Assembly: GCA_964461135.1 (NCBI GenBank)
Contig: CAYWTB010000002.1
Location: 3,585-67,584, forward strand
Length of the DNA: 64,000 bases
Direction: 5' to 3'
Origin: an uncultured Caldithrix sp.
Lineage (GTDB): Bacteria; Calditrichota; Calditrichia; RBG-13-44-9
In this document: positions 1 to 64,000 of the stretch, in pieces
How the letters are laid out: the number at the start of each line of letters is the position of its first letter
How positions within the stretch are numbered: the first letter of the stretch is position 1
Notes under the pieces: model-generated
Databases searched by the model: none
What the model was told of the DNA's origin: nothing
Seen by the model: only the letters and a program-made list of their open reading frames with translations
Made by a program: the position numbers and the translations under genes

Positions 1-420
1 AACATACGTTTCATCCTTTTCCACTTTCAACGAGTGTACGGGCAGGTCCTGAACCATTTCATAGTAGATCTGAACCGGATACCATCCACCTTCTCTGCTT
101 CCATCATAAACACAGATCTTCATCAGTTCAGGAATTATCTCTCCAGTTTGAATAACAAATTCCGGCGTTCCATTTTTCCACCGAACCAACCATTTATGAA
201 TCGGCGTACACCGTGTCGATTTTCCACCGGCACTCACCGTAGCTAATGGTCCAGAATAAAAACGCACACTTTTATCTAAAACCTTATTTGTCGGTAACAT
301 CTGACCAACGAAGGCTTTTTCAGAACGTGAATAACTGACCACGTAATCACCAATCTCTAATTCTTCAATAGGCTTCCATTCACCCCCGGAAACAAGAACC
401 ATAGTTCCTGCAGGCTGGCA
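1..420 (-). mobile_element. Intein 2 (partial, at least 140 codons; probable mini-intein) inserted in helicase motif III
   Basis: It begins with Cys directly after VGDPRQ. Visible blocks are CQPAGTMVLVSGGEWKPIEELEIGDYVVS (Hint block A-like), STRCTPIHKWLV (TxxH block B) and VHSLKVEKDETYV (block F-like) at the window edge. No endonuclease motifs are seen. The terminal HN and +1 residue lie outside the window. Confidence 0.7.
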
Positions 421-2454
421 TTGTCTCGGATCCCCCACAGCGAAAAAATTCTGGTGCTTTGATTGCAACATCAGTGACACTTCCAGCTGTACCTTATTGG
501 TATCCTGAAATTCATCCATCAATATAAATCGAAACTTATTCTTGTAAATTTCTAATATCTGGGGCTTGCTTTTGAACATCCAGTATGTTTCAGAAAGCAT
601 ATCATCAAAACCAATCATCCGGTTCATCTCTCTCATTCGCTCATAGTACGAATAAAAATCAATAAACCAATCTTCTTTCCATCGATCAAGACCCTGTTCT
701 TCTAAAAACTGAACATAATCATGAATGGTCATACAGTTATTCTTAATCATTCCGATTTTCTGAATGGCAATTTTCGGATTCTGATAATTATTCGCTTCAA
801 TTCGCAGTTCCTTAAAACAATCCTTCACAAATTTTAACTGTCCCCAGGAATCCATAATCTGGTAATTCCTCATATTCGGCTTCCACATAGCAATCGACTC
901 ACGCAATATTCTGTTCAACTGGCTGTGAATTGTACCCACATTCAAAGTCTGAACATGATCACCAACTATCGCCATCAATCTCATTTTCATTTCATTGGCA
1001 GCATCATTGGTAAAAGTAAATACGAGCATTTCACTTGGCTTCACACCTTTCTGAATAAGCTTTCCCACCCGATGTGTCAACACGCGAGTATTATGATTCA
1101 CGAAACCATTGGCGATAAAGGAATGAGTGTCCGGAATGGTGAAGTCATAAACATCAAGCTTTTTGGCAATCGGTATTATTCTTTTGATCGGATCAAACCA
1201 AAAATTCGTTGCCAAATCAATCAAATACCGGGCATCTTTATTATCTGGTAGCAACTTACCAACATCAAGACATCTCTGCCTGGAAGGATTTCTTTTTCCT
1301 TTAAAATAATCATGTAAAGTCATACTGGGTTCTATGACTTTATTATTATGTCCATCCCACCAGGACTTTCCGACAAAATCCTTTCTCATTCTTCTGAACC
1401 GGTCTCTCTGGTGATACAGAACATCTACATTGGTATTTGCCGGACGATTAATTGCTTTTTCCAGCCTTTCCTGTTTTTGAATAGCTTCCCTGAAACCAAT
1501 TTGGTCCGAGAATCTTCTTAATGCATTACCCGTACACTGTAAAAGAAAATACATCACCCCTTTCACCATTTTTTCAATAAAAACAGTCCGTACTCCCATA
1601 TTCATCAACATTAACTGAACCTGCTTTGCTAACTCCGAAGAAGCAGTTGAAAATTCAAAAGTACATCCATAAACACCAGCATCTGTATCAAATAATCCCT
1701 GCAGAAAGGCAACCTGATCTTCTTTCACTGCGGATAAAATAGAGTGCGGAACAACTTTATTCAAAGCCCCACAATCAAGATACAATCCCAATTCTTCCAA
1801 CTTCTTCTTGATCTCAACTGAACAAACATAGTGAGTCACAGAATGACGATCAGAATCATCTTTGCGGTAATAAGACTTTACATTCGTATAACCAAATAAT
1901 TTCCGGATCAGTCTACGGAACATGACTTCTACACGAATATCCCATTTACTAAATCCAATCGTTCCTTCTCTTGACCACCCATCACCCAAAAGTAATCCCA
2001 TCAGATAGGCCATATCCTTTCCTACCCCGTTCTCTCCAAAGACCTGCGTATTAAATGCCAGTGCTGCCACGTCACCGGTTCTAATCCGATCCAGTCTTCT
2101 GAATTCCAAATCCCCATTTTCGTTAAGCACCAAAATCGGATGTTCATACGTCCCGGTAATTGAAAAACCACTCTTGGTCTCGATCCGGATAACAGACGAC
2201 TTGTCCAGTTTATACCAGTGACTTGATTTTCCACTTCTGAAACATCGTTTCTCCAAATCAAGAATTGGCATTGCGGATCCCAATTCACAGGACTCCATGC
2301 CAAACCTGTCGATTCTTTTTAATCCAGAATTACTTAACACCAGCGAATCACCTTTAACACATTTCCCAGATCCCGCGCCACTGATAACAAGCCATTGTCC
2401 ATCAAAAGTTTCTACAGCTTCCGCTTGTCGATCATCAAAACTTGCTTGTCCCAT
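1..2454 (-). CDS. UvrD/Rep/PcrA-type SF1 DNA helicase, N-terminal part (ORF runs off the left edge); host gene of two inteins
   Basis: My own minus-strand translation from ATG 2454..2452 is stop-free to position 1. The extein pieces read MGQASFDDRQAEAVETFDGQWLVISGAGSGK|T-RVLTHRVGKLIQKGVKPSEMLVFTFTNDAANEM...GTIHSQLNRILRE...FILMDEFQDTN...FAVGDPRQ|. These are Walker A, motif Ia, DExQD motif II and motif III of UvrD-like helicases. Confidence 0.85.
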   Translation of the reverse strand, partial: MGQASFDDRQAEAVETFDGQWLVISGAGSGKCVKGDSLVLSNSGLKRIDRFGMESCELGSAMPILDLEKRCFRSGKSSHWYKLDKSSVIRIETKSGFSITGTYEHPILVLNENGDLEFRRLDRIRTGDVAALAFNTQVFGENGVGKDMAYLMGLLLGDGWSREGTIGFSKWDIRVEVMFRRLIRKLFGYTNVKSYYRKDDSDRHSVTHYVCSVEIKKKLEELGLYLDCGALNKVVPHSILSAVKEDQVAFLQGLFDTDAGVYGCTFEFSTASSELAKQVQLMLMNMGVRTVFIEKMVKGVMYFLLQCTGNALRRFSDQIGFREAIQKQERLEKAINRPANTNVDVLYHQRDRFRRMRKDFVGKSWWDGHNNKVIEPSMTLHDYFKGKRNPSRQRCLDVGKLLPDNKDARYLIDLATNFWFDPIKRIIPIAKKLDVYDFTIPDTHSFIANGFVNHNTRVLTHRVGKLIQKGVKPSEMLVFTFTNDAANEMKMRLMAIVGDHVQTLNVGTIHSQLNRILRESIAMWKPNMRNYQIMDSWGQLKFVKDCFKELRIEANNYQNPKIAIQKIGMIKNNCMTIHDYVQFLEEQGLDRWKEDWFIDFYSYYERMREMNRMIGFDDMLSETYWMFKSKPQILEIYKNKFRFILMDEFQDTNKVQLEVSLMLQSKHQNFFAVGDPRQCQPAGTMVLVSGGEWKPIEELEIGDYVVSYSRSEKAFVGQMLPTNKVLDKSVRFYSGPLATVSAGGKSTRCTPIHKWLVRWKNGTPEFVIQTGEIIPELMKICVYDGSREGGWYPVQIYYEMVQDLPVHSLKVEKDETYV
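1090..2361 (-). mobile_element. Intein 1 (424 codons) with LAGLIDADG homing-endonuclease domain, inserted in the helicase P-loop
   Basis: In-frame 1272-nt insert between GAGSGK and T. It starts CVKGDSLV (block A) and has GFSITGTYEHPILV (block B, TxxH). Two LAGLIDADG motifs are present: YLMGLLLGDGW and AFLQGLFDTDAGV. VYDFTIPDTHSFIANG is block F. The insert ends FVNHN, followed by a +1 Thr that regenerates GSGKT. Confidence 0.85.
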
Positions 2455-2511
2455 ATCCTTTATCCTTTCGTTCAGTTGAACATCTGTTCAGATATTCATA
2501 TATTTATAGAT

Positions 2512-2540
2512 AAAATACTTTGTTAGAATTCCATTGTCAA
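2512..2540 (-). promoter_or_regulatory. sigma70-type promoter for the helicase gene
   Basis: Minus strand reads TTGACA (2540..2535), a 17-nt spacer (ATGGAATTCTAACAAAG), then TATTTT (2517..2512). It lies about 60 nt upstream of ATG 2454. Confidence 0.5.
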
Positions 2541-2575
2541 ATAAAAAATGTGATAAATTCAATATATACAATAAT

Positions 2576-3427
2576 TTATATTATATTTATACCATCAAAA
2601 AATGGCTTGTTTTCCATTCTGATAAAGCTTGTCTTTTTGCGAGAAAGCCTTGCCCAAATTCGCTTTCCGCATCTCGGCATTATGTCAGGCAGATTATAAT
2701 TTGTAGCAAAAACGATAATCTTTTCAGATTCAACCGCTTCCTCAATCACCCGATAGGCACGTTCATAGATCCACTGCTTTTCCGTATAATTGTAGAACAG
2801 GAATTCATCCCACATAACCACATCGGCTTGTGCAAAAGCCTCATACAATTCCTTCTCAATGGGCTCGGTAGAATCAAATCCCTCTTTTATCTTTCCGAAC
2901 ATAACCGGTTCATTGATATAAAAACAGGGGATCTCGGACAACGACAACTTATTGGTCAACGCTCCCAATAAAGCACTCTTACCCGTATTGTTCGATCCGG
3001 ATAAAATCACAAATGGTCTCCCTCTTTGAAAATTGCTCGGGTCACGCAAATGCTGGAAAGCTTTCTCTGCACCCTTTCTAATTTCCAGACTTTTAAATGC
3101 AAACCTGCCATAATCATCCGGAATACCCGAATTTTTGAAAATCTGTTTTATTCTATTCATCTTGGCTTTTTGCAGATCGGCAACTTGCCTCTGATACTCT
3201 TTCTGTTTTTCAATTCTGGCACAATTTCCACATTCACCCTTTTTCCAAGGATACTCTACCCGCTTAAAAATCCATTCCTTGTTTATCTCCCAATTATTAT
3301 TCACTGCTCCACAAACCACACACCTCCATTCATTTACCGGACACGTTTCTTCAATTTCCGGAGTCACCAAATTCATGACCTCCAGAATGGAATCACCAAC
3401 AGATTTTATCTCAGCAGTTTTTTCCAT
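2576..3427 (-). CDS. DnaC/IstB-like AAA+ ATPase (helicase loader) with N-terminal zinc ribbon
   Basis: Walker A is VILSGSNNTGKSALL and Walker B is DVVMWDEF. The N-terminal CVVCG...CGNC pair forms a zinc ribbon. The gene abuts the upstream gene (3428). Confidence 0.7.
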   Translation of the reverse strand: MEKTAEIKSVGDSILEVMNLVTPEIEETCPVNEWRCVVCGAVNNNWEINKEWIFKRVEYPWKKGECGNCARIEKQKEYQRQVADLQKAKMNRIKQIFKNSGIPDDYGRFAFKSLEIRKGAEKAFQHLRDPSNFQRGRPFVILSGSNNTGKSALLGALTNKLSLSEIPCFYINEPVMFGKIKEGFDSTEPIEKELYEAFAQADVVMWDEFLFYNYTEKQWIYERAYRVIEEAVESEKIIVFATNYNLPDIMPRCGKRIWARLSRKKTSFIRMENKPFFDGINII

Positions 3428-4153
3428 TTAAAATCCCTCAACATTCTTTTGAAATTTCTTTGCCTTGCCATTCATCAAAACTTTTTTCAGATAATTATGA
3501 TTTTTCAAATCAGTCATTTTTCGATTAGCAACCATTCTGACATTTTCAATGAACCGGGACTTATTAAAAGAATATATCTTTCCACCATATAGCAGACTTC
3601 CAGTAGAATACATATCCAGCAATTCTTCCAATAACTTGATATGCTTTTCTTTTCCCATGGCCGACATCGAAATACCTTTTTCAACCTGATTCTTGGTCAT
3701 GAATGATCTTATATAATCCTGAATAACAACCTGATCATGCATTCTGAATTTGCCATACAACTTATCCAGTTTCCTTCCCAGGCTATCGTCCTGAGCCACT
3801 TCAATCCGCAAAAGCTTTAATTCTTCCGGTGAAAACTGCTCAATCAATACTTTTACCTTGGTCAATGCCAATTTCAAAACAGGCTTTTGAATGAATCGCT
3901 CCAAATCTTTCAGATAGTAGACCTGACGAATTCGATCTATCCATCCCGATACAAATAATACCCTGAGCAGATTTCCACAATATTTTTCCGGAACTCCAGC
4001 CATTTCATAGATGTCTTGCTCTGTCAAAATCTTGCTTTTATAAAACACCCCACTAACAGGCATTTCCAGAGCAAGCTCGGCAATACAATAAGCATAATAT
4101 CGATGGGCTGGACTCAAACGGTCCAACCCATCATTTCTTGAGAACGTAATCAT
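3428..4153 (-). CDS. Hypothetical protein; its position suggests a replication initiator or organizer
   Basis: 241-aa ORF packed between the SSB-like gene and the DnaC-like gene. No diagnostic motif was recognised. Confidence 0.55.
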   Translation of the reverse strand: MITFSRNDGLDRLSPAHRYYAYCIAELALEMPVSGVFYKSKILTEQDIYEMAGVPEKYCGNLLRVLFVSGWIDRIRQVYYLKDLERFIQKPVLKLALTKVKVLIEQFSPEELKLLRIEVAQDDSLGRKLDKLYGKFRMHDQVVIQDYIRSFMTKNQVEKGISMSAMGKEKHIKLLEELLDMYSTGSLLYGGKIYSFNKSRFIENVRMVANRKMTDLKNHNYLKKVLMNGKAKKFQKNVEGF

Positions 4154-4168
4154 CCCAAAAACTCCGAA

Positions 4169-4711
4169 TTAAAAGGGAACATTGTCATCTTCATCTGCAG
4201 GATCCGGAATCGGTCCGTCAGAACCTTTTTCTTCCTGGAAATCCACCTGGGCAGGATCAACCGTTATATCAACCGGATCATTCTGACCGATCTCACTCGG
4301 AAAAACACTATCAACCCGCGTTCCCGTGTCACCACTCTGTTTGGTATATTCCCGAACATCAATCCGGCAAATCCGGCCAACGAACCCTTTCTCATCAAAA
4401 GCCGGTCCCTTGAAAGTCACATTGAGCATTTCACAGAATCCCCGGAAATAATTCAGGGTGTTCGGCTGCAAACTTCTTGTGCCGTATACAGTTCCACCCT
4501 GAGCGTCTCCTGAAACAACCTCATATTTAATGTTCAGTTTCGGGTATCCTTTCTGATCAGTTTGAACCTCAACGTCCACAATCTTGGCTTCGTAAACCCC
4601 GGGATCAATTTTCACACCACCCGGGCTCCAGCTTTCCAGATTTTCAAAATTAGTGTCTTGGGGCAACTTAATTGGCATAGTACATCTCCTTTCTTTAGGC
4701 TTTTTGTGCAA
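4169..4711 (-). CDS. Phage SSB-like protein with acidic C-terminal tail (probable true start at 4678)
   Basis: The C-terminus PDPADEDDNVPF mimics the SSB acidic tip (DDDIPF). AAAGGAG lies upstream of the internal ATG at 4678 (MPIKLPQ...). The gene sits directly after a Sak4-like ATPase, as in phage recombination modules. Confidence 0.6.
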   Translation of the reverse strand: MHKKPKERRCTMPIKLPQDTNFENLESWSPGGVKIDPGVYEAKIVDVEVQTDQKGYPKLNIKYEVVSGDAQGGTVYGTRSLQPNTLNYFRGFCEMLNVTFKGPAFDEKGFVGRICRIDVREYTKQSGDTGTRVDSVFPSEIGQNDPVDITVDPAQVDFQEEKGSDGPIPDPADEDDNVPF

Positions 4712-5552
4712 CTGGTTTAGGTTTCTGGCCTGCAGAAGCAGGCTTCTTTATTTCATCTGCTTTTGGCTTCTCAACCGATGCTTCTGCGGTCTGCGTTACC
4801 GCTTTTTTCAGTTCCGTAAACAAAAACGTGTAGTCAGCTGGTATCACTTCCGGAAATCCCCTGAAACTTCCCTTGGCTGCCACTGTATTGGTTGGCTTGA
4901 AACTGATCACCCTTTCTTCCATGTCACCCTTGGTCCGCAATTCCATATGACCACAAAAATCAATGACATGGAGAAATTCTTTGGCGAACGTTCTTCCCAC
5001 TTTCGGAAACAGCATGGATCTTTTTGCACCGGTTCCCTCAATCTCAACCTCATAGGTATCTTCATGAGCTTCAATCATGACATTGATACCTCTCCGGTTC
5101 AGGGATTTAAGCAATCTCAAATACTCCCTGCCCTTGTTTGCAGCATCCCCATACTCTTTCAGGGTGATAAACTTTTTACCACGGGCATACTGCAAGCCGA
5201 ATTCCAGAAATTTCTGTAACTCCGACCAACTGTTAATGAACAACCACTTCACGCCCATTTTGTCATAAGGCGGTTTGTCCGGAAATTCCCTTAAAAAATC
5301 ATTCCAAGCCTTCAATGCTTCGATCATATCCTTTTGCATTGAGAACTGAATAAAAGGAATATCCAGACCGTGCAAGGCTCTCATTACCCCACCTTCTTCA
5401 AATTCCGCTATCAGAATTTTCTTCCAATAACTTTTCGGCAGGGTACTTACGAGCGTTGTCTTGCCCAGACCGGACTGACTGTAAACACAGACAGTGACAC
5501 CGTGCTTACCAAGATCAGCCGTATCCTTGGCAGAAACGATCCGTAATCCCAT
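4695..5552 (-). CDS. Sak4-like / AAA_24-type phage ATPase (RecA-fold recombination protein)
   Basis: N-terminal P-loop VCVYSQSGLGKTTLVSTLP. Size is 285 aa. The position upstream of the SSB-like gene fits this family. Confidence 0.65.
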   Translation of the reverse strand: MGLRIVSAKDTADLGKHGVTVCVYSQSGLGKTTLVSTLPKSYWKKILIAEFEEGGVMRALHGLDIPFIQFSMQKDMIEALKAWNDFLREFPDKPPYDKMGVKWLFINSWSELQKFLEFGLQYARGKKFITLKEYGDAANKGREYLRLLKSLNRRGINVMIEAHEDTYEVEIEGTGAKRSMLFPKVGRTFAKEFLHVIDFCGHMELRTKGDMEERVISFKPTNTVAAKGSFRGFPEVIPADYTFLFTELKKAVTQTAEASVEKPKADEIKKPASAGQKPKPVAQKA

Positions 5553-5770
5553 ATCCTATCCTTTCTTTTTTGGTTGAACTATTAGGCAAAAATCTGTTTA
5601 GCATGATGTTTGCATATAAATTGCAGTTTAGTATACTGCATTGTCAAGTTAAATTTTTTTAGATACCAAAAAAATACCAATTTCTGATCTTTTTTCAATT
5701 TACTCCGTAATATTTACGTAACTACCATTTTAAAAGGAATTGACAAAAGTGCTGGAAGGCTTGATTTGAT

Positions 5771-5820
5771 TGGTCGGGGCGGGGAGATTTGAACTCCCGG
5801 CCTCCTGGTCCCGAACCACA
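5771..5820 (-). other. 3' fragment of a tRNA gene = integrase attachment-site core (att)
   Basis: Minus strand reads GGGAG-TTCAAAT-CTCCC (T-arm), CGCCCCG (3' acceptor strand), A, CCA. No matching 5' acceptor strand, D-arm or anticodon arm lies upstream. Confidence 0.7.
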
Positions 5821-5880
5821 TTTTGCATGTTTTTGAATCATTTGATTTTTCTATATTTCCTTAATAATCAACAATTTACA

Positions 5881-5908
5881 AAACGCACCGAAACGTACCG
5901 AAACGCAT
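5881..5908. repeat. Three tandem decamers AAACG(C/T)A(C/T)CG; candidate arm-type integrase binding sites
   Basis: The sequence is aaacgcaccg aaacgtaccg aaacgcat, located between the integrase stop (5920) and the tRNA-like core. Confidence 0.5.
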
Positions 5909-5919
5909 CAAATTAAACT

Positions 5920-7020
5920 TTACATCGCAGTATTATCGCATTTCAGGCTACTTGACAACAAATCCACTCCAGAATTTTTCTTAATTTCAAAATTAACACA
6001 GTTCTTATCTCTATGTAAACTATCCGGAGCCAGCTTGGCATAGATCTGAACAGTTTGAATATCCGAATGTCCAAGTATATCTTTTAAATGATACAGGTTC
6101 CCACCATTCATTACAAAATAGGAAGCATACGTATGCCTTAAATCATGAAACCGACCATTAATTTTGGTTTTCATCTGAAATCTTCGCCACATCGAACTGA
6201 CCGCCGATTCGTTTTTAATTTCCCAAAACACTTTCGGATTCTTGATATGTCTTAATCGATTTTTCAAAATTCTAAGTGCCTCATAATTCAATGGCACCAT
6301 TCTGGACTTATCATTCTTCCCATAAGGCATGACCTGTTCTTTTCCCAAATCCACATGATCTGGCCATTTCAACCTTAACAATTCCTTTCTTCTTAATCCC
6401 GTATTTATTGCCAGAAAGACGAAATCTACTTGCCACTTCGGATGCCTGGGATCAGAAAAATATTCTCTTATAACTTCAATCTCATCATCCCTAAAATATC
6501 TCGGAACATCATTAACCGGTCCGGGAACACGACCACTAAACGGATTTTTCTGGACATATCCCCACTTAATTGCCACATTCAACATTTTACGCAAATTAAT
6601 CAGATGATGCCTGACTGATCCCATTGAATAATTCGCCAGAAAATAACCCATCACCTTCTTTTCAACCAAAACATCATCCAGTCTTCGAATATCTATATCA
6701 CCAAGAATGTCTAATAATTTATCAGCAGTTTCTTCATAGTCTGTTTTTGTTCTGGGCTTGATCTTTTTACCATTCTTTGTAACCATAATAGGCAAGTACT
6801 TTTTCCACTCATCTATAAATCCAGCCAAACGAATTCCCTGTTTGCTTGATCTGTCCAGAAACGATGGATCCAAAGAGCCCATGCTTATCTCATAATCAAT
6901 TTGACTTTGTATTTTCTTCGCAGCCTTATATTCTGAAACACCTAAACTTTTATGATACTTTCTACCACCATAATAAAATTCAAGAGAATAATTCTTCCCT
7001 TCTTTTCTCAAATAACTCAA
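5920..7020 (-). CDS. int: Tyrosine site-specific integrase
   Basis: C-terminal catalytic signature FHDLRHTYASY...LGHSDIQTVQIYAKL (R..HxxR..H..Y). An N-terminal SAM-like/arm region is present. The gene is adjacent to the tRNA-fragment att core and an excisionase. Confidence 0.9.
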   Translation of the reverse strand: MSYLRKEGKNYSLEFYYGGRKYHKSLGVSEYKAAKKIQSQIDYEISMGSLDPSFLDRSSKQGIRLAGFIDEWKKYLPIMVTKNGKKIKPRTKTDYEETADKLLDILGDIDIRRLDDVLVEKKVMGYFLANYSMGSVRHHLINLRKMLNVAIKWGYVQKNPFSGRVPGPVNDVPRYFRDDEIEVIREYFSDPRHPKWQVDFVFLAINTGLRRKELLRLKWPDHVDLGKEQVMPYGKNDKSRMVPLNYEALRILKNRLRHIKNPKVFWEIKNESAVSSMWRRFQMKTKINGRFHDLRHTYASYFVMNGGNLYHLKDILGHSDIQTVQIYAKLAPDSLHRDKNCVNFEIKKNSGVDLLSSSLKCDNTAM

Positions 7021-7118
7021 TTCACGCCTCCAGCTTATTAGCCTATTCTTAATAGACTAATATACAGTTTATCAAACTGCAAATATATCATAAATACAAG
7101 TGATTATCATCACTTTTT

Positions 7119-7376
7119 TTATTTCACACTATCCACCAATGTCTTTACGACTCTTCTTTTTTGCTTCTCTATATCTATCTTATCTTTTTCCATCAAATAA
7201 TCCAAATCCTTCACATCAAACCGTGGCGATCTATTGCCCTGGGGCTTACTGTATGGCAATACTCCATCCCTCATCCAGATTTCAAGCTGTCTCACACTAT
7301 ATCCAGTATATAATGATGCCTGTTCTTTATTTAGCCATCGTGGCCATACCTGTAAAATCACTGAACCCATACTCAT
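7119..7376 (-). CDS. xis: AlpA/Xis-type helix-turn-helix excisionase
   Basis: WLNKEQASLYTGYSVRQLEIWMRDGVLPY resembles excisionase-family HTH proteins. The gene lies immediately upstream of int. Confidence 0.6.
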   Translation of the reverse strand: MSMGSVILQVWPRWLNKEQASLYTGYSVRQLEIWMRDGVLPYSKPQGNRSPRFDVKDLDYLMEKDKIDIEKQKRRVVKTLVDSVK

Positions 7377-7417
7377 TCCTTGTGGTTTAGTATACTATAC
7401 TTTTTGACCAAAAAAAA

Positions 7418-7984
7418 TCAAATCCAATGCGGAAACTCCAAGCATTCTTTAATTCGTTTTTCATAACCTGCAATTTGCTTTTTCAATTTGGTTATTCTGT
7501 CAGAAAGCCTGGAATTCAGTTCATACAGAGACCGTGGATCCGCATGCTTTAACTCGGCCTGTTCTTCTTCCCGTTTTATCAATTCATCAGCCCTGGCCAA
7601 GAGTGGATCCAATTCTTCCTGCAAATCCTTTTTGTATTCTGCCATTCTCTCCACTCTTTTCCGGTTGTTTATCAATCCGGTCTGTGTCTCACAGTGAGAC
7701 ACGCCTTCCTCCACAACCTCTATTTCGGTCTGCAGATCCATTTCACCGGGCGTTAAAACTTCTTGTTTTGCTGAAATATCCTCCTGGAATACTTCATTTT
7801 CATTAATCAGATCGTTTTCACCAGACTCCATGACCTCCGGTTTCGGGTCTGGAACCGGTTGAACTTCCATTTCCTGGGATTTTAACTTTCCTATTTCGAC
7901 CTGAATTCGCTGAAATTCAGTAATCGATATATTAGGATTAAGAAGCTGGCGTTTTAACTGTACGATTTCCCGGGCAACATCCAT
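7418..7984 (-). CDS. Hypothetical coiled-coil protein (contains a hairpin-family copy in frame)
   Basis: 188-aa ORF rich in E/K/Q heptad-like sequence. The palindrome at 7684-7702 encodes VSHCET. Confidence 0.55.
   Translation of the reverse strand: MDVAREIVQLKRQLLNPNISITEFQRIQVEIGKLKSQEMEVQPVPDPKPEVMESGENDLINENEVFQEDISAKQEVLTPGEMDLQTEIEVVEEGVSHCETQTGLINNRKRVERMAEYKKDLQEELDPLLARADELIKREEEQAELKHADPRSLYELNSRLSDRITKLKKQIAGYEKRIKECLEFPHWI
7684..7702. repeat. Hairpin-family copy 1
   Basis: GTGTCTCAC-a-GTGAGACAC, a perfect 9-bp inverted repeat inside ORF 7418..7984. Confidence 0.8.
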
Positions 7985-7986
7985 TC

Positions 7987-8433
7987 CTATTTCTCCTCAT
8001 CGATTTTCAGATTTTCTATCCACTGCAAAGACGCTTTCCCATCCAGGGTTGCCACTTTTAAACATGACCGGCTATATCTGTAACTTACTGGTAATTCACC
8101 TTTCAGAATTTTAATCGCAGAATCCACAACACTTCCACCAAACACACTAAATCCGGTTTCCACAAAATAAACAGCTTCCTCAATTTCATCAGTCCTGTCC
8201 CGGAATTTGCCATTAAACATTAATTCATCACAAATATCAACCTGACGATCATCATCAGTAAAAAAGTCCCATCCAACTGAATGATGGTCAAACATTTTCC
8301 CGCTGAACAGTACCGCTCCATCCGGTTCAAAAATTCTTACAGGAATGACAAAAGCATAATTCTCGCCAAGATTTTCATCAAGTCCTAATGGACCAGTCTG
8401 TTCAATAGTTACAATAACCGATCTGTGTCCCAT
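7987..8433 (-). CDS. Hypothetical protein
   Basis: 148-aa ORF, tightly packed in the same-strand operon (2-nt gap to 7984). Confidence 0.55.
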   Translation of the reverse strand: MGHRSVIVTIEQTGPLGLDENLGENYAFVIPVRIFEPDGAVLFSGKMFDHHSVGWDFFTDDDRQVDICDELMFNGKFRDRTDEIEEAVYFVETGFSVFGGSVVDSAIKILKGELPVSYRYSRSCLKVATLDGKASLQWIENLKIDEEK

Positions 8434-8448
8434 ATAACATCCCCTTTC

Positions 8449-8730
8449 TTATAATATTTCCCATTTACCTTTTCCATCTTCCTGATATTTCAAGGTCGTA
8501 CAACCGGCATCGTTAGCTGCCCAATCTAAAACATCAAACGGATACTCATCATTGGAATCAAATCTGCCCTCATAAGACAGGTTTCCATCATCATCATATA
8601 ACCGAAATCTATCCGGAAGTTTTTCTTTCCATTCTTTTGGTGGGGGGCAATCCTTCGAACACACACCCTGCCGATTGAGAGAATCATGCTCACCGTTATT
8701 AATATAATCTTTCGTAATAACCCAGGGCAT
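8449..8730 (-). CDS. Hypothetical protein
   Basis: 93-aa ORF in the same-strand operon. Confidence 0.55.
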   Translation of the reverse strand: MPWVITKDYINNGEHDSLNRQGVCSKDCPPPKEWKEKLPDRFRLYDDDGNLSYEGRFDSNDEYPFDVLDWAANDAGCTTLKYQEDGKGKWEIL

Positions 8731-8733
8731 CGT

Positions 8734-9096
8734 CTACTCCTTTTTCTTTTCGTCCTTCTTTTCCTTTTCTATAAAATATGAAGCCACGGCTATTCGTAGT
8801 TCTTTGTTTCCATGACTGATCAGCCATCTCCCATCCGCTCCATACTTTTTATCAATACTCAAAATCTTCTCAACAAATTCCGGTTTCAACTCCCTGCCAT
8901 AAAGAACCTTCACGGGATTACCAAACCGGTAGGCAACTAAAATCTTGTACTGCCAATTCACATAGAGAACCGCATCACCCCAATCGGTATTGAACCGTTC
9001 GAACAGAAAATTCACATCCCCAACTTTCTCGAATCCGCAGGAAACCATCAAACCGTGTACTTCATCCTGGGCTCTAAAGTAACAGGGCTTATTCAT
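8734..9096 (-). CDS. Hypothetical protein
   Basis: 120-aa ORF in the same-strand operon. Confidence 0.55.
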   Translation of the reverse strand: MNKPCYFRAQDEVHGLMVSCGFEKVGDVNFLFERFNTDWGDAVLYVNWQYKILVAYRFGNPVKVLYGRELKPEFVEKILSIDKKYGADGRWLISHGNKELRIAVASYFIEKEKKDEKKKE

Positions 9097-9202
9097 AACA
9101 CGTCCTCAAATCCATTAAAATCTCAAAGTTTCGCATACTATTCACTTATAACTAATGTTGCTATTACTAAACAAAACAGGTAAAAAAACACAATAGTCGG
9201 TA

Positions 9203-10375
9203 TTATATCAGCACCAACTGTTCCCCGGCTTTAGTCGGCGTCTGGACTTTCAGTCCATGCTTTTCAGCCAATCGATGTAAAAAACTCAATTCGGTTTCAT
9301 TCTGGAAATCCACAGCTTCCTGGCGAATTTTATCAATGTGCTGTTCCAGAATTTCACACATGGCACGATTCACATCAGCATAGTCCGACATCGATGGCCA
9401 CCGAAGACTCTGACCATTATGCTTCAAGAAATGCTCACAGAATCGTAGAAAATCCTGCGGATCATTATAGGTTGCCTTGAATCCATTAATATCATAGTGA
9501 GCAATATATCCGCAGTGCAGATGCAGGTGTTCATACAGGTTCTTGTCCATCAAATGAATATCCCGCTTTTCAATGACAGACTTGAATCTCTTGAACGCCT
9601 TGTACTTCTGTTGCGCAGTCAAAAACTGCATATCTTTGAAGTCTGATAACACATACTCAGTCATTTGCATCTCCTCATATTTTTGTTTGATAAAATCTTT
9701 GAAAAACTGCTTGTGAATTATCTTTGACTTATCTTTATCATTCCTCTTCAAATAAAATTGCAGGAAGGGGAAATAATACAACATCCATTCCGGACTCTTC
9801 CGTGTGTGAACACGTGGTCCTTTCCAATCCCAGTTATATGGAGCAGTAAAGCAAGTATCCACTTTATCCGTGGCTTGAAAAGCTCCAAAATTGTGAGTTG
9901 GATTAATCAATTCGGGAAACCTGCATCTCATAACAAATTTGAAAATTTTGTTCCCGATAATCTTCGCAATAAATTGAAATAATTCTTCAGATTCTTCAAA
10001 CAGCAAAAAATTAAGATGATCGCTGATTGAGATTCGCTTATAGAATGGATGATCGTTGACCAAATCGTTCAGCCTTTGCCATGACCGTTTTCGTGATCCA
10101 TTGACATACTGTAGATATTCGATTGCGAAATTTCCGGAGAAGATCAGAGCAAATGTTGGTGTAATTTTATACTTATTCTCAATCATTGTGGAATGGATCT
10201 GATCCAAATACGCAGACATCCTTTTCAAATCCTGGCAGGTTACTCCACACTTGCATTCCAAAAAAGATTCATCAAGATTCTTTAAAAATTCAGTTTTTCT
10301 TTGCCCTAAAATCAGACCAATAAATATTATGATAATTGCCAGGATCGTGGCAACCCTGCGATCATTTCTGCTCAT
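9203..10375 (-). CDS. Hypothetical protein with N-terminal transmembrane anchor
   Basis: 390-aa ORF. The N-terminus VATILAIIIIFIGLILG is hydrophobic. It overlaps the upstream gene by 4 nt (ATGA type). Confidence 0.6.
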   Translation of the reverse strand: MSRNDRRVATILAIIIIFIGLILGQRKTEFLKNLDESFLECKCGVTCQDLKRMSAYLDQIHSTMIENKYKITPTFALIFSGNFAIEYLQYVNGSRKRSWQRLNDLVNDHPFYKRISISDHLNFLLFEESEELFQFIAKIIGNKIFKFVMRCRFPELINPTHNFGAFQATDKVDTCFTAPYNWDWKGPRVHTRKSPEWMLYYFPFLQFYLKRNDKDKSKIIHKQFFKDFIKQKYEEMQMTEYVLSDFKDMQFLTAQQKYKAFKRFKSVIEKRDIHLMDKNLYEHLHLHCGYIAHYDINGFKATYNDPQDFLRFCEHFLKHNGQSLRWPSMSDYADVNRAMCEILEQHIDKIRQEAVDFQNETELSFLHRLAEKHGLKVQTPTKAGEQLVLI

Positions 10376-10758
10376 AGTTCGATTAACTCCGGTTTAAAAT
10401 ATGCAATCTTCTCAATCAATTTCTTTTCGGCCAAATCACTATGCTGATATTTAAACGACAATCTCTTCGGGACAAATTTAAGATTCCAGAAAAATTCCTT
10501 GGTTCTGGCATCTCTGATTCTATTGACCGACGCATAATATTTTTGATCAACAAAATACTGAAATGAATCCTGGCCACAAACCTTAACAATCAGGGCCCTT
10601 TCGAATGCATAAAGCAGAGCATCATCCCGATCAAAAAAGACAATTTTCTCCTGCGGATGGCTGTACGGAAAAACCTTGACTACATAACCCGTGCCCTGTG
10701 GAATCCCGGAAAAACTTATATCAGTAATAATCACCAGCATCATTCTCTTAACCGTCAT
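10372..10758 (-). CDS. Hypothetical protein
   Basis: 128-aa ORF, coupled to 9203..10375 by a 4-nt overlap. Confidence 0.55.
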   Translation of the reverse strand: MTVKRMMLVIITDISFSGIPQGTGYVVKVFPYSHPQEKIVFFDRDDALLYAFERALIVKVCGQDSFQYFVDQKYYASVNRIRDARTKEFFWNLKFVPKRLSFKYQHSDLAEKKLIEKIAYFKPELIEL

Positions 10759-10887
10759 ACTCTTTTCCCTCCACGCATTCCAAAATGAATAGCCTTTCCC
10801 TCAAAACTGGCAAAAGGAAGCACAACAACACCGTACAAAATAATCAAAACAAGAATTTTTAACATTGCCGATCTCCCTATCTTTTGG

Positions 10888-12009
10888 TTAAATCACCTTT
10901 CTGTAGATATATTCCAATCCAGCCGGAATCACTTCCACACCCTTTAATTCAGAATGCCTCCTGTCTTTTTTCAGGAAATAATACTGGAGTGCCAGTTCCT
11001 GAGATTCCCTGCTGGATAAGCAAATATCCCTAAAATCGCACCAACCACAGTGCAGACCTTGGGTTCGGTAAATCGCCAACTTCCCGATTTCAGATACCAC
11101 CGCACGAATCTTTTCGATGAAAATTTGAATTTCTTCCCGGGTTCTGGAAACTTCAACCCGGTCAAAATAGTGTTCGGGACGAGCCAGATAATCCGCTACC
11201 AACCTTTCCTCATACTCTGCCGGGCTCTCTTTTCGCTCGTTCAGAACAATTTCACCATCATAATTTTCGGTCTGTTTTTTCAGATCCTTTTCGGCCTTCT
11301 GGGCATCTGATTTCAACCGGAAAAATTCATTGGTTAGAGACTGTCCGGTCCCGGCGGACACAATCGAATACTCCCGTTTCAAATTAGGCTTTGTACCGGG
11401 CTTTTTTATTATGGAATAATATCCCCGCACAACGGGATTTCGCCATTTGGCCATTAAAGCCAAAAGATACAGTGTTACCTGATCATCAATTCTCAGCATT
11501 TCCCGATCCGATTCACCCCACACAGATTTGGTCTTAATCTCGTGCAAGCGATATCCGTTCTTCCTTACAACTCCATCAATTTTTCCCGACAAAATGAAAT
11601 CACCAAAATCCAAGGCAAACTCCATTTCGGGCAGATAGGCTTGAAAATCCTCTTGTTGAAAATAATGAACATGGTATCCTGTCAGCATGGCAATGATGGC
11701 AGCCCTTTCAGCATAGTAATCCTCATCCTCCATGTCCGCATACCACTGCATCCTTTTGCCATAATCCAGATATTCTTTGGCCTTTTTCTGGAGTACGGCC
11801 AATTCACACCGGTTGTTATACAAATAATCCAGCATTTCATGGACCACAGATCCAATTCTGATATTTTTTCCGTAATCTTTGGGAGTGTATCCTTCCTGGT
11901 AGGCCCAATAATGCTGCTGCCTGCAAATAATCCATGATCTTTCTTCTGAGTAAGTGATAACAGGTTTTCCGATCATTTTACAGTCCATTTCTCCTAAAAT
12001 TTGCGACAA
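10888..12009 (-). CDS. PD-(D/E)xK exonuclease of the Cas4/RecB family with Fe-S-type Cys cluster
   Basis: GKIDGVV...LHEIKTKS is the D..E-x-K motif. The C-terminal CGWCDFRDIC (C-x2-C-x5-C) plus an N-terminal Cys (WIICRQQ) gives the Cas4/AddB four-Cys pattern. The true start is probably an internal ATG after AGGAGA. Confidence 0.7.
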   Translation of the reverse strand: MSQILGEMDCKMIGKPVITYSEERSWIICRQQHYWAYQEGYTPKDYGKNIRIGSVVHEMLDYLYNNRCELAVLQKKAKEYLDYGKRMQWYADMEDEDYYAERAAIIAMLTGYHVHYFQQEDFQAYLPEMEFALDFGDFILSGKIDGVVRKNGYRLHEIKTKSVWGESDREMLRIDDQVTLYLLALMAKWRNPVVRGYYSIIKKPGTKPNLKREYSIVSAGTGQSLTNEFFRLKSDAQKAEKDLKKQTENYDGEIVLNERKESPAEYEERLVADYLARPEHYFDRVEVSRTREEIQIFIEKIRAVVSEIGKLAIYRTQGLHCGWCDFRDICLSSRESQELALQYYFLKKDRRHSELKGVEVIPAGLEYIYRKVI

Positions 12010-13279: not shown

Positions 13280-13639
13280 ATGATTTCACAAGATACGCTG
13301 GACATTATCAGTCGAGTTGTTGCCTTGCGAAAAATCCGGGGCATCAGCCAGGCCGATTTATCTCGCAAGATTAATCTTAGCAAAGGTTCATTGAGTCAGT
13401 TTGAACGTGGCCTCATGCGCCTCAGCGCTGAGAATCTTGGCAAAATCGCCAAAGCGCTGGACACCTCTACGGATTATCTGATTTTTGGCAAAGAAAAGAA
13501 GAATCCTAAAACAACTACAATGGAATTATTTAGAAAATTTCTTAATAACGAGAAAATCAAACAAATGATCAATCTTACCAATGACGAAGAACTGAACGAC
13601 CTTATCCAGCAGATGAAAGACTATCTAAACCAAGACTGA
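13280..13639 (+). CDS. XRE/CI-type helix-turn-helix transcriptional repressor
   Basis: LRKIRGISQADLSRKINLSKGSLSQFERGLMRLSAENLGKIAKALDTSTDYLIFG is a canonical HTH_XRE sequence. The gene is transcribed opposite to the surrounding operons. Confidence 0.85.
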   Translation: MISQDTLDIISRVVALRKIRGISQADLSRKINLSKGSLSQFERGLMRLSAENLGKIAKALDTSTDYLIFGKEKKNPKTTTMELFRKFLNNEKIKQMINLTNDEELNDLIQQMKDYLNQD

Positions 13640-14108
13640 TCACGTTATTGGCGATCTTGTAAACCGGCTTTTCCCATTCCACAGACAGGTAAAGGAGCTT
13701 TTTAAAGAGCTCCTTTTCTATTCTAACCATCTTATCTGCTCGACCTAAATCTTTCATTTTTTCGGCATCAAATATTTTTAATCCCGCCTCCACCACATCA
13801 TCGATCACTTCAATGTGCTGTTTCCCCGGAGCCCTGTCAATCAATTTTTGAAATAATTTAGCATCTATGTTTACAGCTTTGCGGGGTTTTAATTCCAAAA
13901 TCCGTCTTTCGTTTCTTTTTTCAGCTAAAAATTGATCCACTTCTGCCAGGCTAAACCGCAATTCTCCAAGTTCTGTTTTGGAACGCTGTAATCCTTTGTC
14001 CATCCAGCTATATATGGTCTGCCGGGACACACCCGCATGTTTCATAACATCATAAATGGTCATGGTCCGGTTCAGTTTGTCCAGTTTTTCCAAAACATCT
14101 TTTTTCAT
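13602..14108 (-). CDS. Excisionase/MerR-like HTH DNA-binding protein (candidate Cro/early regulator)
   Basis: N-terminal TIYDVMKHAGVSRQTIYSWMDKG is HTH-like. Its 3' end overlaps the convergent XRE gene by 38 nt. Confidence 0.6.
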   Translation of the reverse strand: MKKDVLEKLDKLNRTMTIYDVMKHAGVSRQTIYSWMDKGLQRSKTELGELRFSLAEVDQFLAEKRNERRILELKPRKAVNIDAKLFQKLIDRAPGKQHIEVIDDVVEAGLKIFDAEKMKDLGRADKMVRIEKELFKKLLYLSVEWEKPVYKIANNVISLGLDSLSSAG

Positions 14109-26160: not shown

Positions 26161-27561
26161 TTAACCGATATATAATATTCCTGCAGGATATCGAAAATCA
26201 GCTGGTTTGGGTCTACCCAAAAGAGAATAGCCCAAAGTCAACACCCCAATCCGACCAACAAACATGGTGATGATTATTAAAATTTTTCCTACGAATGATA
26301 ACTGAGATGTAATCCCGGTTGATAAACCGACGGTACCGAAAGCTGAAACCGTTTCAAATAGTATTTTAAGGAAAGAGATTCTTTCCGTTAAAATAAGTGT
26401 TAAACTAACTCCCGTAATTAGCAGAAAAGCCAGTATGGCAATTGCAAAAGATTTATCGATGGCCTCTCTGGGAATCTCCTTCTTAAAGGCATTTGTATTT
26501 ACCTGACCTTTCAGCAATCCAATGAGATGAAAGACCATCGCACCCAAAGAAGTCGTTTTGATTCCACCGCCGGTTCCCCCGGGCGAGGCGCCAATAAACA
26601 TCAGGATGATTATAATAAATAATGCATCCTGACCCAGACCTCCAATTTCCACAGTATTAAATCCGGTCGTAGAGGTGGCTGAAATTGTCTGAAAGGATAT
26701 GGCCAATATTTTTTCCTTGAGGGGGATAATTGCTGAGAGGTTGGTATCGAAAAATAAAATAAAGCAACCGAAAGTTATCAGAAAGAGAGTAATTATCGAT
26801 ACTAATTTTGAATGCATGCTTAGTTTAGCGTGTACATTATGTTTTAATTTCTTCAAAAAATATAGATTAAAATCCTGTATGACAAAAAAGCCAATACCTC
26901 CGGTAATGCAGATGATGTCAAGGAGAATGTTTAGGGAAATGTTATCTTTATATACTTCAAAACTGTTGGGGAACAAGGAAAATCCAGCAGTACAGAACGC
27001 GGAGATTGAATGAAATAATCCCAGGTAAAACGCATGGACAGCCGTATACTGTTTCAGATAAAAAAGGCTGAGCAGGACTGCCGAACCCAGCTCAAACAGA
27101 ATGGTAAACAGTATCGTCGAACCTACAAATCTTTTAATCCCCCCCAAAGTTGTCCCGGCTAAAGATTCGCGTAATAAACTTTTAATATTTAAAGATGGCT
27201 CTTTGCGAATGAGATAAGTGAATAAGGTGATCAGGATCATATATCCCAATCCCCCGATCTGAATGAGGGAGAGAATGATGAGCTGTCCTGTTAACGAATA
27301 ATAACTTCCCGTATCGACGATTATTAAGCCGGTGGTAGTTACAGCAGACGTTGCGGTAAAAAATGCATCAATCCACGGTTCATGGTGGTGCTGTTGGGAT
27401 GAAAAGGGAAATTGCAGCAATAACGCCCCGATACCTACAATTATTACAAATCCAAGGAAAATAACCTGGAAAGGAGTCAGATTTACAAATCTATTTTTGA
27501 GAAATGATATCATACTCGTTATTACCCTGCACTTTAATTGATTGATGCACCCGACCCACAT
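26161..27561 (-). CDS. TrkH/KtrB-family potassium transporter (probable start at 27513)
   Basis: Polytopic membrane protein with repeated pore-loop signatures (TATSAVTTTGL, FCTAGFS, ATSTTGFN, GASPGGTGGGIKTT, FGTVGLSTG). The track start overlaps the kinase gene; MISFLKNRF is the more likely start. Confidence 0.85.
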   Translation of the reverse strand: MWVGCINQLKCRVITSMISFLKNRFVNLTPFQVIFLGFVIIVGIGALLLQFPFSSQQHHHEPWIDAFFTATSAVTTTGLIIVDTGSYYSLTGQLIILSLIQIGGLGYMILITLFTYLIRKEPSLNIKSLLRESLAGTTLGGIKRFVGSTILFTILFELGSAVLLSLFYLKQYTAVHAFYLGLFHSISAFCTAGFSLFPNSFEVYKDNISLNILLDIICITGGIGFFVIQDFNLYFLKKLKHNVHAKLSMHSKLVSIITLFLITFGCFILFFDTNLSAIIPLKEKILAISFQTISATSTTGFNTVEIGGLGQDALFIIIILMFIGASPGGTGGGIKTTSLGAMVFHLIGLLKGQVNTNAFKKEIPREAIDKSFAIAILAFLLITGVSLTLILTERISFLKILFETVSAFGTVGLSTGITSQLSFVGKILIIITMFVGRIGVLTLGYSLLGRPKPADFRYPAGILYIG

Positions 27562-29402
27562 GTGGGAATTTGAAAATAAAAGGTGCTCCCCTGACCCGAT
27601 TCACTGGTCAGTCCAATAAATCCTCCCTGGGATTCAATGAATTCTTTGGACAGGGCAAGTCCAAGTCCTGAACCTTTTTCACCTTTCTCACCTAATTGGA
27701 CAAATTTTTGGAATAATTTCCTTTGATCCTCGGCCTTAATTCCCGGACCTTCATCCTTGACAGTAAAGACAACAAAATTGCCTTCTTTCGACACCTTCAA
27801 TAATATGGTTCCATTTACCGGCGTATAACGAATCGCATTTCCCAGCAGATTTACCAAAACCCACACGGTTTTTTCAATGTCTGCCCACACTAAAGGCAAG
27901 TCAGGTTCAATCTCCTTTTTTATGGAAACTTGTTTTTCCTTTATAAAAATTGCCAGCGCATCAATGGCAAAGCTTAGAATTATGAAAGGTTCAACTTTTA
28001 CAATTTCCAGATGGATATTACCCATTTGAATTCGTGAATATTCCAGTAATTCGTTGACAATCCGCAGCAATCTTGCGGTTTGCAGTGAAATGGAATCGGT
28101 CAAATTTTCCTGCTCAGAATTCAGCGCACCAACCCGGTGATCTTTCAACAATTTTAAGTTTAAATTAATAGCTGAAATCGGCGTCTTGAGTTCATGAGAA
28201 ACCGTGGCCATAAAACTGGTCCGGGCAACATCACGTTCTTCGAAGCGGGTAATATTTTTCAGCAAAATAAGATGTCCCAGAGTTATACTAACCTCACTTG
28301 GGGACGCAAAGGACCTCATTTTAATAATTTGAACATGATAAAATCTCTTCTGATTATCATGTTCCCATTCAATAATTTCATCCTGGGATGGTTTACTCTT
28401 ATTTTCCAATAATATTTCATTAATTAATTCCTGGAGCTGGTTATTTCCCCAGGAAATAGATGATACTGATTTGCCAATAACCTGTGACTTTTCCAGCCCA
28501 AGCAATTTCAAGGTAACATGATTGATATAGAGAATGGTATTGTCCTTTCCAAGCACGAGCACGGCATCATCAAAATTTTCGATAATGCTTTCCAGTCTTT
28601 TCTTTTCCAATAAAATTTGTTCAAGATTTTGACTTTCGAATTCCCTTAATTTGACAGCCATTGTATTGAAGGCTAACGCCATTTCACCCAGTTCATTACC
28701 GGGAGGATAATCCAAACGCTGATCATAATTTCGCTGAGATATTTCTCTGATCTTTGCCGTCAATTCACTTATAGGCTTTAGTATCATTTTGGGCAAATAA
28801 ATCAGTAGCCAAACAGTAAAGATGATGCAAAACAAACCCAATATTGAAATATAGGTACCCACATGATCAGCAGTATTTTCTGCTTTTGTATTCCTTTGCA
28901 ATATTGCGTTCATGTTTAAATTATAAATTTCCTCCACCACATTCCGCACTTGGTTGTACTTCACCTGAATTTCCGAATAATAGTGTGACGGGTTGTATAC
29001 ATTCTGTTGAATGATAAGGCTAAAATTATCCAGATAACTCTGATAGTTTTTACCGAGTTTTTCTACTAATTCCTTCTCACCCACTTCTGTTATATTTTTT
29101 TCCTGTGCCATTAGCGCATTATTAAAAGTAGTTATCGCCTGGGCATATTCTGTTGTAAAATTATTCAATGCAAGACTATCCCTATTCATGAACATGATCC
29201 GTTTAATCTGCATGGTTTGGATCACATCCAACGAATTCAACATAATATGGGCATAGTTTACCGATGCATTGTTGTCGCGAAGAATTGCCCGCGAATCTCT
29301 GGAAAGTTCAAATACAAAAAGAGAACCGGCCAGGCTGAGCAGGACGATGAGTAAAAACAGAATGCTAATGCCACCCACAATTCGCGTTTTTAATTTTTTC
29401 AT
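27534..29402 (-). CDS. Sensor histidine kinase (TM-HAMP-PAS-HisKA-HATPase_c)
   Basis: H-box is FMATVSHELKTPISAI, N-box is LVNLLGNAIRYTP, and the G-boxes are VKDEGPGI and GSGLGLALSKEF. There is an N-terminal TM pair. Confidence 0.85.
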   Translation of the reverse strand: MKKLKTRIVGGISILFLLIVLLSLAGSLFVFELSRDSRAILRDNNASVNYAHIMLNSLDVIQTMQIKRIMFMNRDSLALNNFTTEYAQAITTFNNALMAQEKNITEVGEKELVEKLGKNYQSYLDNFSLIIQQNVYNPSHYYSEIQVKYNQVRNVVEEIYNLNMNAILQRNTKAENTADHVGTYISILGLFCIIFTVWLLIYLPKMILKPISELTAKIREISQRNYDQRLDYPPGNELGEMALAFNTMAVKLREFESQNLEQILLEKKRLESIIENFDDAVLVLGKDNTILYINHVTLKLLGLEKSQVIGKSVSSISWGNNQLQELINEILLENKSKPSQDEIIEWEHDNQKRFYHVQIIKMRSFASPSEVSITLGHLILLKNITRFEERDVARTSFMATVSHELKTPISAINLNLKLLKDHRVGALNSEQENLTDSISLQTARLLRIVNELLEYSRIQMGNIHLEIVKVEPFIILSFAIDALAIFIKEKQVSIKKEIEPDLPLVWADIEKTVWVLVNLLGNAIRYTPVNGTILLKVSKEGNFVVFTVKDEGPGIKAEDQRKLFQKFVQLGEKGEKGSGLGLALSKEFIESQGGFIGLTSESGQGSTFYFQIPTCGSGASIN

Positions 29403-29411
29403 GGTATCTCT

Positions 29412-29516
29412 TTAGAATTTTTTGTTTTTTTTGTAATTTTTTCTCTTTATCCATTTTTCGAATTTGAATCCCAAATAAATAGTCAGGATAATTATGACTA
29501 AAATGAGTATGTCCAT
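29412..29516 (-). CDS. Unlisted 34-aa hydrophobic micro-ORF upstream of the kinase (speculative)
   Basis: My translation is MDILILVIIILTIYLGFKFEKWIKRKNYKKNKKF. It lies between the sigma54-like promoter and the kinase start. Confidence 0.3.
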   Translation of the reverse strand: MDILILVIIILTIYLGFKFEKWIKRKNYKKNKKF

Positions 29517-29547
29517 TTTTGCATTACCTCATTTTTTAAGGTAAAAA

Positions 29548-63089: not shown

Positions 63090-63095
63090 ACATCC

Positions 63096-63793: not shown

Positions 63794-63991
63794 TTACATC
63801 TGAATATCCTTCTGAATTTCCCGGATTTCCTTTATCACTTCCTTTCGGAATGCCTCATTTACCGTAGCCACATTACCATCCGCAACATCCTGAGTCAAAT
63901 CATCATATCCGGCATCAAATCCTAACTCTGCCAGAAACCGTGACGGTTCGGTTTCCTGATTGAACCTTGTCAGTACATGGCTTAAATACAC
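63794..63991 (-). CDS. Hypothetical small protein (near the window edge)
   Basis: 65-aa ORF on the dominant strand. Confidence 0.4.
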   Translation of the reverse strand: MYLSHVLTRFNQETEPSRFLAELGFDAGYDDLTQDVADGNVATVNEAFRKEVIKEIREIQKDIQM

Positions 63992-64000
63992 TCGCTGGAT

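Follow-up and report, generated by a model that had tools for sequence, protein, structure and literature searches.

We analysed a 64,000-nt stretch of a contig from an uncultured Caldithrix sp. (CAYWTB010000002.1, positions 3,585 to 67,584; hereafter the window), at the left end of which lies the gene for a UvrD-like helicase interrupted in frame by two inserts. Read on the minus strand, positions 2454 to 1 form an uninterrupted frame of 818 codons. The reading frame leaves the window at its left end and for this reason is absent from the program-made list of open reading frames (ORFs), as had been pointed out in an original prediction made from the letters and that list. A protein search recovered the full-length product (P0001), a 1228-aa protein encoded on a 131,076-bp contig in an intact frame of 1228 codons. 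The end of the second insert and the C-terminus of the helicase, which lie beyond the window, were taken from this protein and from a JGI contig (L002) that is 100% identical to window positions 1269..1. The first insert is also found, at 84% amino acid identity, on a contig of a separate NCBI metagenome-assembled genome (MAG; L082, GCA_003855055.1, RQOK01000200.1). Given the perfect match of L002 and the presence of the first insert in a separate MAG, we rejected a sequencing or assembly artefact as the source of the interrupted gene. The gene very probably encodes a 1228-aa precursor of a UvrD/PcrA-like superfamily 1A (SF1A) helicase, part of a phage/plasmid-type replication-recombination module and carrying two self-splicing inteins.

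A UvrD-like helicase interrupted in two catalytic motifs

All coordinates of this gene, which we refer to as copy 1, are on the minus strand. From the ATG at 2454, the N-terminal extein (amino acids 1-31, 2454..2362) runs to the GAGSGK of Walker A (2379..2362), and its start, MGK/Q..., is conserved in four relatives (P0003, P0004, P0008 and P0012). Intein 1 follows (aa 32-455, 424 codons, 2361..1090), with Cys as its first residue, HN as its last two, and then a Thr. This Thr, T456, completes Walker A and opens the middle extein (aa 456-678, 1089..421), which includes motif Ia (1020..997) as well as motif II/Walker B, LMDEFQD (522..502), and closes with VGDPRQ, the first half of motif III (438..421). 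Intein 2 begins directly afterwards, with its Cys1 at 420..418, and the first 140 of its 148 aa fill the remainder of the window (420..1); its last eight residues (ADGLMTQN) and the +1 Ser lie to the left. The original prediction had described the first insert as 424 codons at 2361..1090, running from Cys through TxxH and two LAGLIDADG motifs to an HN before Thr and regenerating GAGSGKT upon excision, and this proved exact to the base. Its second insert, said to start with Cys right after VGDPRQ and to be visible for 140 codons, was found at the same place.

The Pfam UvrD-helicase domain (PF00580) matched aa 456-679, in the middle extein, with an E-value of 4e-51 on the unspliced fragment and of 3.8e-59, as a single colinear stretch, after splicing in silico; P0001 also has PF13361 and PF13538. 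Deletion of aa 32-455 and 679-826 from P0001 leaves a spliced protein of 656 aa, which is 77% identical to P0008 (656 aa) and 69% identical to P0012 (653 aa), both of them naturally free of inteins, with no gap at either junction. The spliced product is likewise colinear with Geobacillus PcrA (1pjr) over residues 6-614 (1.4e-93), motifs I-III included; neither junction is gapped, and both GAGSGKTRVLTHR and AVGD..QSIY.FRGA continue through them. This colinearity, which the original prediction had proposed as a check, together with profile hidden Markov model (HMM) matches, upholds its claim that both inserts are inteins within catalytic motifs (Walker A and motif III) of one SF1 UvrD-like helicase. 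With N- and C-terminal UvrD domains and with motifs I-III colinear once spliced, the protein belongs to the UvrD/Rep/PcrA-like SF1A group. The NCBIfam pcrA, uvrD and rep models align colinearly and score far under their equivalog cut-offs on the N-terminal fragment that was scanned (199.7 bits against a cut-off of 911 for TIGR01073, over the N-terminal 254 aa of the spliced protein). Because the helicase is only ~35% identical to PcrA, as it is to phage UvrD-like helicases, the best name that its sequence suggests is UvrD-like (UvrD/PcrA-like SF1A), and we do not call it an orthologue of PcrA or UvrD.

Two inteins of different build

Intein 1 splits Walker A between K31 and the Thr (GAGSGK-C...HN-T, hyphens here and below marking the junctions), and every class-1 splicing residue is present. 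These are Cys1 (C32, 2361..2359), the TxxH of block B (TYEH, aa 102-105, 2151..2140), the Asp and His of block F (VYDFTIPDTHSFIANG, aa 435-450, 1152..1105), the terminal HN (aa 454-455, 1095..1090) and T456 as the +1 residue. Between blocks B and F lie two LAGLIDADG motifs, LMGLLLGDG (aa 151-159, 2004..1978) and LQGLFDTDA (aa 251-259, 1704..1678), which are 100 residues apart and have each kept their acidic residue. Four HMMs scored above their cut-offs on this insert: Intein_splicing PF14890 (60.4 bits, cut-off 35.8), LAGLIDADG_3 PF14528 (45 bits, cut-off 22.5), TIGR01445 intein_Nterm (32.0 bits, cut-off 24.5) and TIGR01443 intein_Cterm (28.6 bits, cut-off 15.6). By sequence, the closest solved structure is the intein endonuclease PI-PfuI (1dq3, 3.4e-7). 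Read from its sequence, intein 1 is a canonical class-1 intein with a predicted LAGLIDADG homing endonuclease.

Four alleles with an empty site (P0003, P0004, P0008 and P0012) read GAGSGKT and fix the boundaries of intein 1 exactly, and the DNA alignment of the window to a related contig (L001) is interrupted around the intein, at 2371 and 1084. The closest database relative of intein 1 is 84% identical and occupies the same site (P0002/L082, P0002 being a partial protein from an unclassified MAG), and the next UvrD P-loop inteins belong to proteins whose identity, taken over the full alignment, does not exceed 41%. Homologues of 417-437 aa, with 30-36% identity, are found at GK-T/S of FtsH, PhoH, MutS, RadA/Sms-like and RecD-like proteins.

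Intein 2 is 148 aa long (CQPAG...ADGLMTQN) and splits motif III at Gln-Ser, between VGDPRQ and SIYAFRGA. Motif III of the intein-free proteins reads GDPRQSIYAFRGA in P0008 and ADPRQSIYAFRGA in P0012, so that the boundaries of intein 2 are exact as well. Block B is TPIH (T72 and H75, 207..196) and block F is VHSLKVEKDETYV (39..1); C1, T72, H75, N148 and the +1 Ser are invariant in a four-sequence alignment (A1). The fragment visible in the window gave weak Hedgehog matches. A profile built on the four-sequence alignment matched solved inteins, namely 4o1s (2.9e-5), the BIL domain 2lwy and the DnaX mini-intein 7cfv. The AlphaFold2 model of intein 2 (pLDDT 86.9, pTM 0.82) is in its entirety a single HINT domain. 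When this model was compared with the PDB by Foldseek, the top 50 matches were all inteins, BIL or Hedgehog HINT domains (TM 0.6-0.8), with TM values of 0.74-0.79 to the NpuDnaB intein, a BIL domain and a Hedgehog HINT domain. Natural alleles exist with neither intein (P0008 and P0012) and with intein 2 only (P0003 and P0004), and the predicted splice sites agree with their junctions residue by residue.

Two other assignments were considered for these domains. That the inserts are BIL- or Hedgehog-type domains was rejected on the grounds that they lie in frame in conserved motifs, have exact empty-site alleles, and end in a terminal Asn followed by a +1 nucleophile. A class-3 assignment of intein 2 was rejected since Cys1 is present and the block F position is occupied by Ser, not Cys.

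A second helicase copy and the surrounding genes

The C-terminus of a second helicase, copy 2, is encoded by the 204 bases at the right end of the window (64000..63797, minus strand), and the gene runs on beyond it to the right (L001/L003, 493-2907). Its product is P0003, an 804-aa protein with the motif III mini-intein only, ending THN-S, and with an empty P-loop site. The exteins of copies 1 and 2 are 91% identical in protein, with silent sites saturated (dS, the synonymous divergence, of at least 1). The flanks of the helicase are duplicated too, at ~84% DNA identity, and this covers the upstream flank and at least 3.8 kb downstream (window 2371-2946 compared with L001 1-576, and window 60194-63996 with L002 2300-6095). 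There are thus two diverged copies of a replication/recombination module, in the same orientation and 63.7 kb apart, on the contig of 131,076 bp (~2 x 65.5 kb). A related 154-kb contig (L004) has one helicase, which lies between homologues of the two window ends. This arrangement and the duplicated flanks suggest that the module recurs at a spacing of 63.7 kb and that the window spans approximately one such unit. Either two related elements are truly linked in tandem here, or the assembler has joined two variants of one circular element of ~64 kb.

The empty P-loop site of copy 2 reads GGAAGCGGAAAA up to the insertion point and ACATCCGTG after it, and shares 71 of 90 bases with the flanks of intein 1 (window 2316-2406 compared with L001 541-630). 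Several of the differences are no more than 12 bp away from the insertion point, and nearly all are synonymous. As far as sequence can suggest, such synonymous differences could make copy 2 immune to the intein 1 endonuclease.

Upstream of the copy 1 helicase, and on the same strand, are genes for a DnaC-like protein (2576-3427), an SSB-like protein (4169-4711), a Sak4-like AAA_24 protein (4695-5552), a tyrosine integrase (5920-7020), a PD-(D/E)XK exonuclease (10888-12009) and an excisionase-like protein (13602-14108). At the other end of the window are DnaN (59996-61135) and, by a weak match (3.1e-5), a Holliday-junction-resolvase-like protein (63096-63722). The original prediction had spoken of a mobile-element helicase. 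That the helicase belongs to a mobile element is plausible from the integrase, Sak4-like, SSB, DnaC-like, exonuclease and DnaN genes; the virion genes or IMG/VR relatives that might have gone with them were not found. Virion genes were absent among the ~40 window ORFs scanned, and on this ground we rejected a tailed phage. The IMG/VR scan returned no relative, and window positions 1-12000 had no megablast match among the GenBank phages. Searches of the window for tRNAs, tmRNAs and Rfam families were also negative.

The genes between the two helicase modules include cellular-type cargo: within 26161-31105 (minus strand) are those for a TrkH cation transporter, for a PAS/HAMP histidine kinase and for a response regulator that is sigma-54-dependent. 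Restriction-modification-like genes are present in two places on the minus strand. At 35329-39901, a type III restriction res-like helicase of 853 aa (35329-37890) adjoins a DNA methyltransferase of 682 aa (37853-39901), and at 56340-59951 is a 1203-aa fusion of an N6-adenine methylase domain with a helicase-like C-terminus. Two further minus-strand genes (49941-52793 and 55222-56322) encode proteins with a C-terminal FlgD-Ig/Por_Secre_tail domain, of the kind used for type IX secretion sorting. These sorting domains suggest an FCB-group host, in agreement with the nearest genome-binned relative, a Calditrichaceae MAG (L084). Nearly all ORFs of at least 150 aa are on the minus strand and the GC skew is negative throughout (-0.03 to -0.31), which fits one direction of replication and transcription across the 64 kb.

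Splicing, mobility and known counterparts

The anatomy of the two inteins suggests that each would excise itself post-translationally by the standard four-step class-1 pathway. Cys1 would form a thioester, to be attacked by an oxygen nucleophile, the +1 Thr for intein 1 or the +1 Ser for intein 2; the terminal Asn would then cyclise, and an O-to-N shift would close the peptide bond. The predicted product is the 656-aa helicase, with Walker A restored as GAGSGKT and motif III as GDPRQSIYAFRGA. In SF1 helicases such as PcrA and UvrD, motif III couples ATP hydrolysis to DNA binding. Because both of the split motifs are needed for ATP hydrolysis and for its coupling to DNA, unspliced or half-spliced protein should be inactive, and the helicase would stay off until both inteins are gone.

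The two inteins probably differ in mobility. In comparison with L082, third-position identity is 73% in intein 1 as against 55% in the flanking exteins (Fisher p = 9e-4), and dS is 0.58 in intein 1 as against 1.66 in the helicase exteins. An intein closer than its exteins at silent sites is expected if it moved between alleles after these had diverged, and the lower silent divergence of intein 1 thus appears to be a signature of recent horizontal spread. Over the same comparison the ratio of nonsynonymous to synonymous divergence (dN/dS) of intein 1 is 0.16 overall and 0.18 in the endonuclease part. The intein 1 endonuclease, which keeps both catalytic Asp, would cut empty alleles, into which the intein would then be copied; intein 1 is probably still spreading by homing, or has spread so recently, and belongs to a family inserted at GK-T/S of many unrelated P-loop ATPases. 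Intein 2 seems to have lost its mobility. It is probably fixed and vertically inherited, and may persist since only a precise deletion would be tolerated.

Several observations weigh against a precursor in which both inteins are functional. The HMM check put forward in the original prediction came out above cut-off for intein 1 but not for the single sequence of intein 2, for which Pfam Hint alone gave 15.8-18.1 bits, under the cut-off of 29.7. Leftward extension through P0001 and L002 recovered the end of the 148-aa intein and the +1 Ser, as foreseen, but the HN that had been expected there is QN. A penultimate His (block G) is typical of inteins, though not universal, and some inteins without it splice poorly. 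In block F of intein 2, moreover, Ser replaces the usual Asp, and Glu/Thr the usual His. An uninvaded P-loop allele, that of copy 2, stands on the same contig as intein 1, which would mean that the endonuclease is inactive, or that the synonymous differences block its recognition of the site, or that the copies are in different cells. Finally, the dN/dS values, which as such point to purifying selection (0.15-0.35 for intein 2 and ~0.04 for the exteins, besides those given above for intein 1), are rough because dS is saturated (~1 or higher) in most comparisons.

The terminal QN and the Ser and Glu/Thr at the Asp and His positions of block F, taken with the second helicase module on the same contig, would fit a copy 1 that is crippled, intein 2 splicing poorly or not at all in a decaying paralogue whose function is supplied by copy 2 and its THN mini-intein. 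We consider this improbable. The frame is intact over all 1228 codons, and the low dN/dS of the exteins and that of intein 2 itself both speak against decay, as does the extein dN to the outgroup L004, which is not higher in copy 1 (0.163) than in copy 2 (0.155). Equal extein dN argues that copy 1 is not decaying and is still selected, and hence that both inteins splice. The penultimate residue, Gln in intein 2, is His in P0003, Lys in P0004 and Cys in P0011, a variety among intact relatives which suggests that this mini-intein clade does not depend on it.

The inteins might instead have been retained as regulators, such that conditional splicing (through Cys1 redox state, DNA or stress) switches the helicase, and with it replication or recombination of the element, post-translationally. 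That both lie in motifs essential for ATPase activity, that two distant proteins have inteins at both of these sites, and that selective retention has been argued to underlie the clustering of inteins in P-loops (PMC4760082) would all agree with such a role. However, the sequence bears no sign of conditionality, intein-free alleles are common in close relatives (P0008 and P0012), and purely selfish elements are equally expected in conserved motifs, which serve as homing targets and in which imprecise loss is lethal. We regard regulation as very improbable. It is also unlikely, in our estimation, that the locus holds something more unusual, either a homing-resistant recoded paralogue beside its invaded twin (if the two are from one genome) or a two-key post-translational control exerted by differently built inteins.

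Read as a helicase precursor with two self-splicing inteins, the gene adds one more well-defined case of inteins targeting the catalytic motifs of P-loop ATPases. The availability of alleles that carry both inteins, the mini-intein alone or neither makes the set usable for studying homing, endonuclease loss and splicing without a penultimate His, and a compact 148-aa mini-intein with a QN-S junction may be of interest to collectors of small inteins. General understanding is unchanged, given that the insertion sites and multi-intein helicases were documented before. UvrD is among the 15 commonest bacterial intein hosts, with 16 inteins (PMC4760082), insertion in the P-loop is a recurrent theme and inteins cluster there (PMC4760082), and P-loop inteins have been stated for DnaB, PcrA and UvrD (PMC5874633).

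The rarity implied by the original prediction did not hold up, inteins being common at both sites in UvrD-like helicases. The motif III site holds an intein of 147-372 aa in 74 of the 120 best matches of the first protein search, and at least 10 other UvrD-like matches have one at the P-loop site (P0002, P0005-P0007, P0009-P0011, P0013 and P0014-P0019). Double occupancy recurs in P0011 (1138 aa) and P0017 (1366 aa), both of them distant UvrD-like proteins of metagenomic origin. A limited literature search found no paper on a UvrD-like helicase with both sites occupied.

The nearest described counterpart of intein 2 is in the UvrD-type helicase gp34.33 of Bacillus phage SPO1, where an insert annotated as an intein in GenBank (FJ230960) interrupts the same motif III site, VGDDDQ-CQPAG...GLVTHN-SMYSFRGA there and VGDPRQ-CQPAG...GLMTQN-SIYAFRGA here; CampHawk has the same intein as SPO1 gp34.33 (PMC3868849). 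BLASTP aligned the SPO1 intein with intein 2 at 2e-15, the N-terminal 100 aa being 40% identical and the C-terminal 69 aa 35% identical. With 275 aa, the SPO1 intein is longer than the 148-aa intein 2, a central stretch of ~115 aa being found only in SPO1, and its penultimate residue is His where intein 2 has Gln. The SPO1 helicase has no P-loop intein, its Walker A reading AVAGSGKTRV. An endonuclease domain is absent from intein 2, as seen from its length of 148 aa, its single-HINT model and the lack of the central segment of SPO1. Because it is homologous to the SPO1 intein at the identical site without that segment, and because the 74 proteins above share the site, intein 2 belongs, as a member that lacks an endonuclease, to a widespread family of UvrD motif III inteins. 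The original prediction of a Hint mini-intein without an endonuclease is in this way confirmed by the profile, by the AlphaFold2 and Foldseek results and by the homology to SPO1.

Intein 1 in turn resembles the LAGLIDADG inteins in the P-loops of the RFC small subunit, DnaB (site b), MCM (site a) and UvrD/PcrA, with which it shares the Lys-Thr insertion site, the class-1 splicing domain and the LAGLIDADG endonuclease; the NCBIfam models of intein-containing RFC, DnaB and GyrA align across it. Compared with these known P-loop inteins it is a new sequence, with P0002 (84% identical) as its closest relative. DnaB proteins are a precedent for helicases with two inteins, documented cases having one of the two in the P-loop (PMC4760082). 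There, too, the ATPase domain of a single helicase carries both (sites a and b), but the host differs, being an SF1 UvrD-like protein here, whereas DnaB belongs to SF4. With its insertion sites and multi-intein helicases already documented, the double-intein UvrD-like helicase is a real but ordinary new example.

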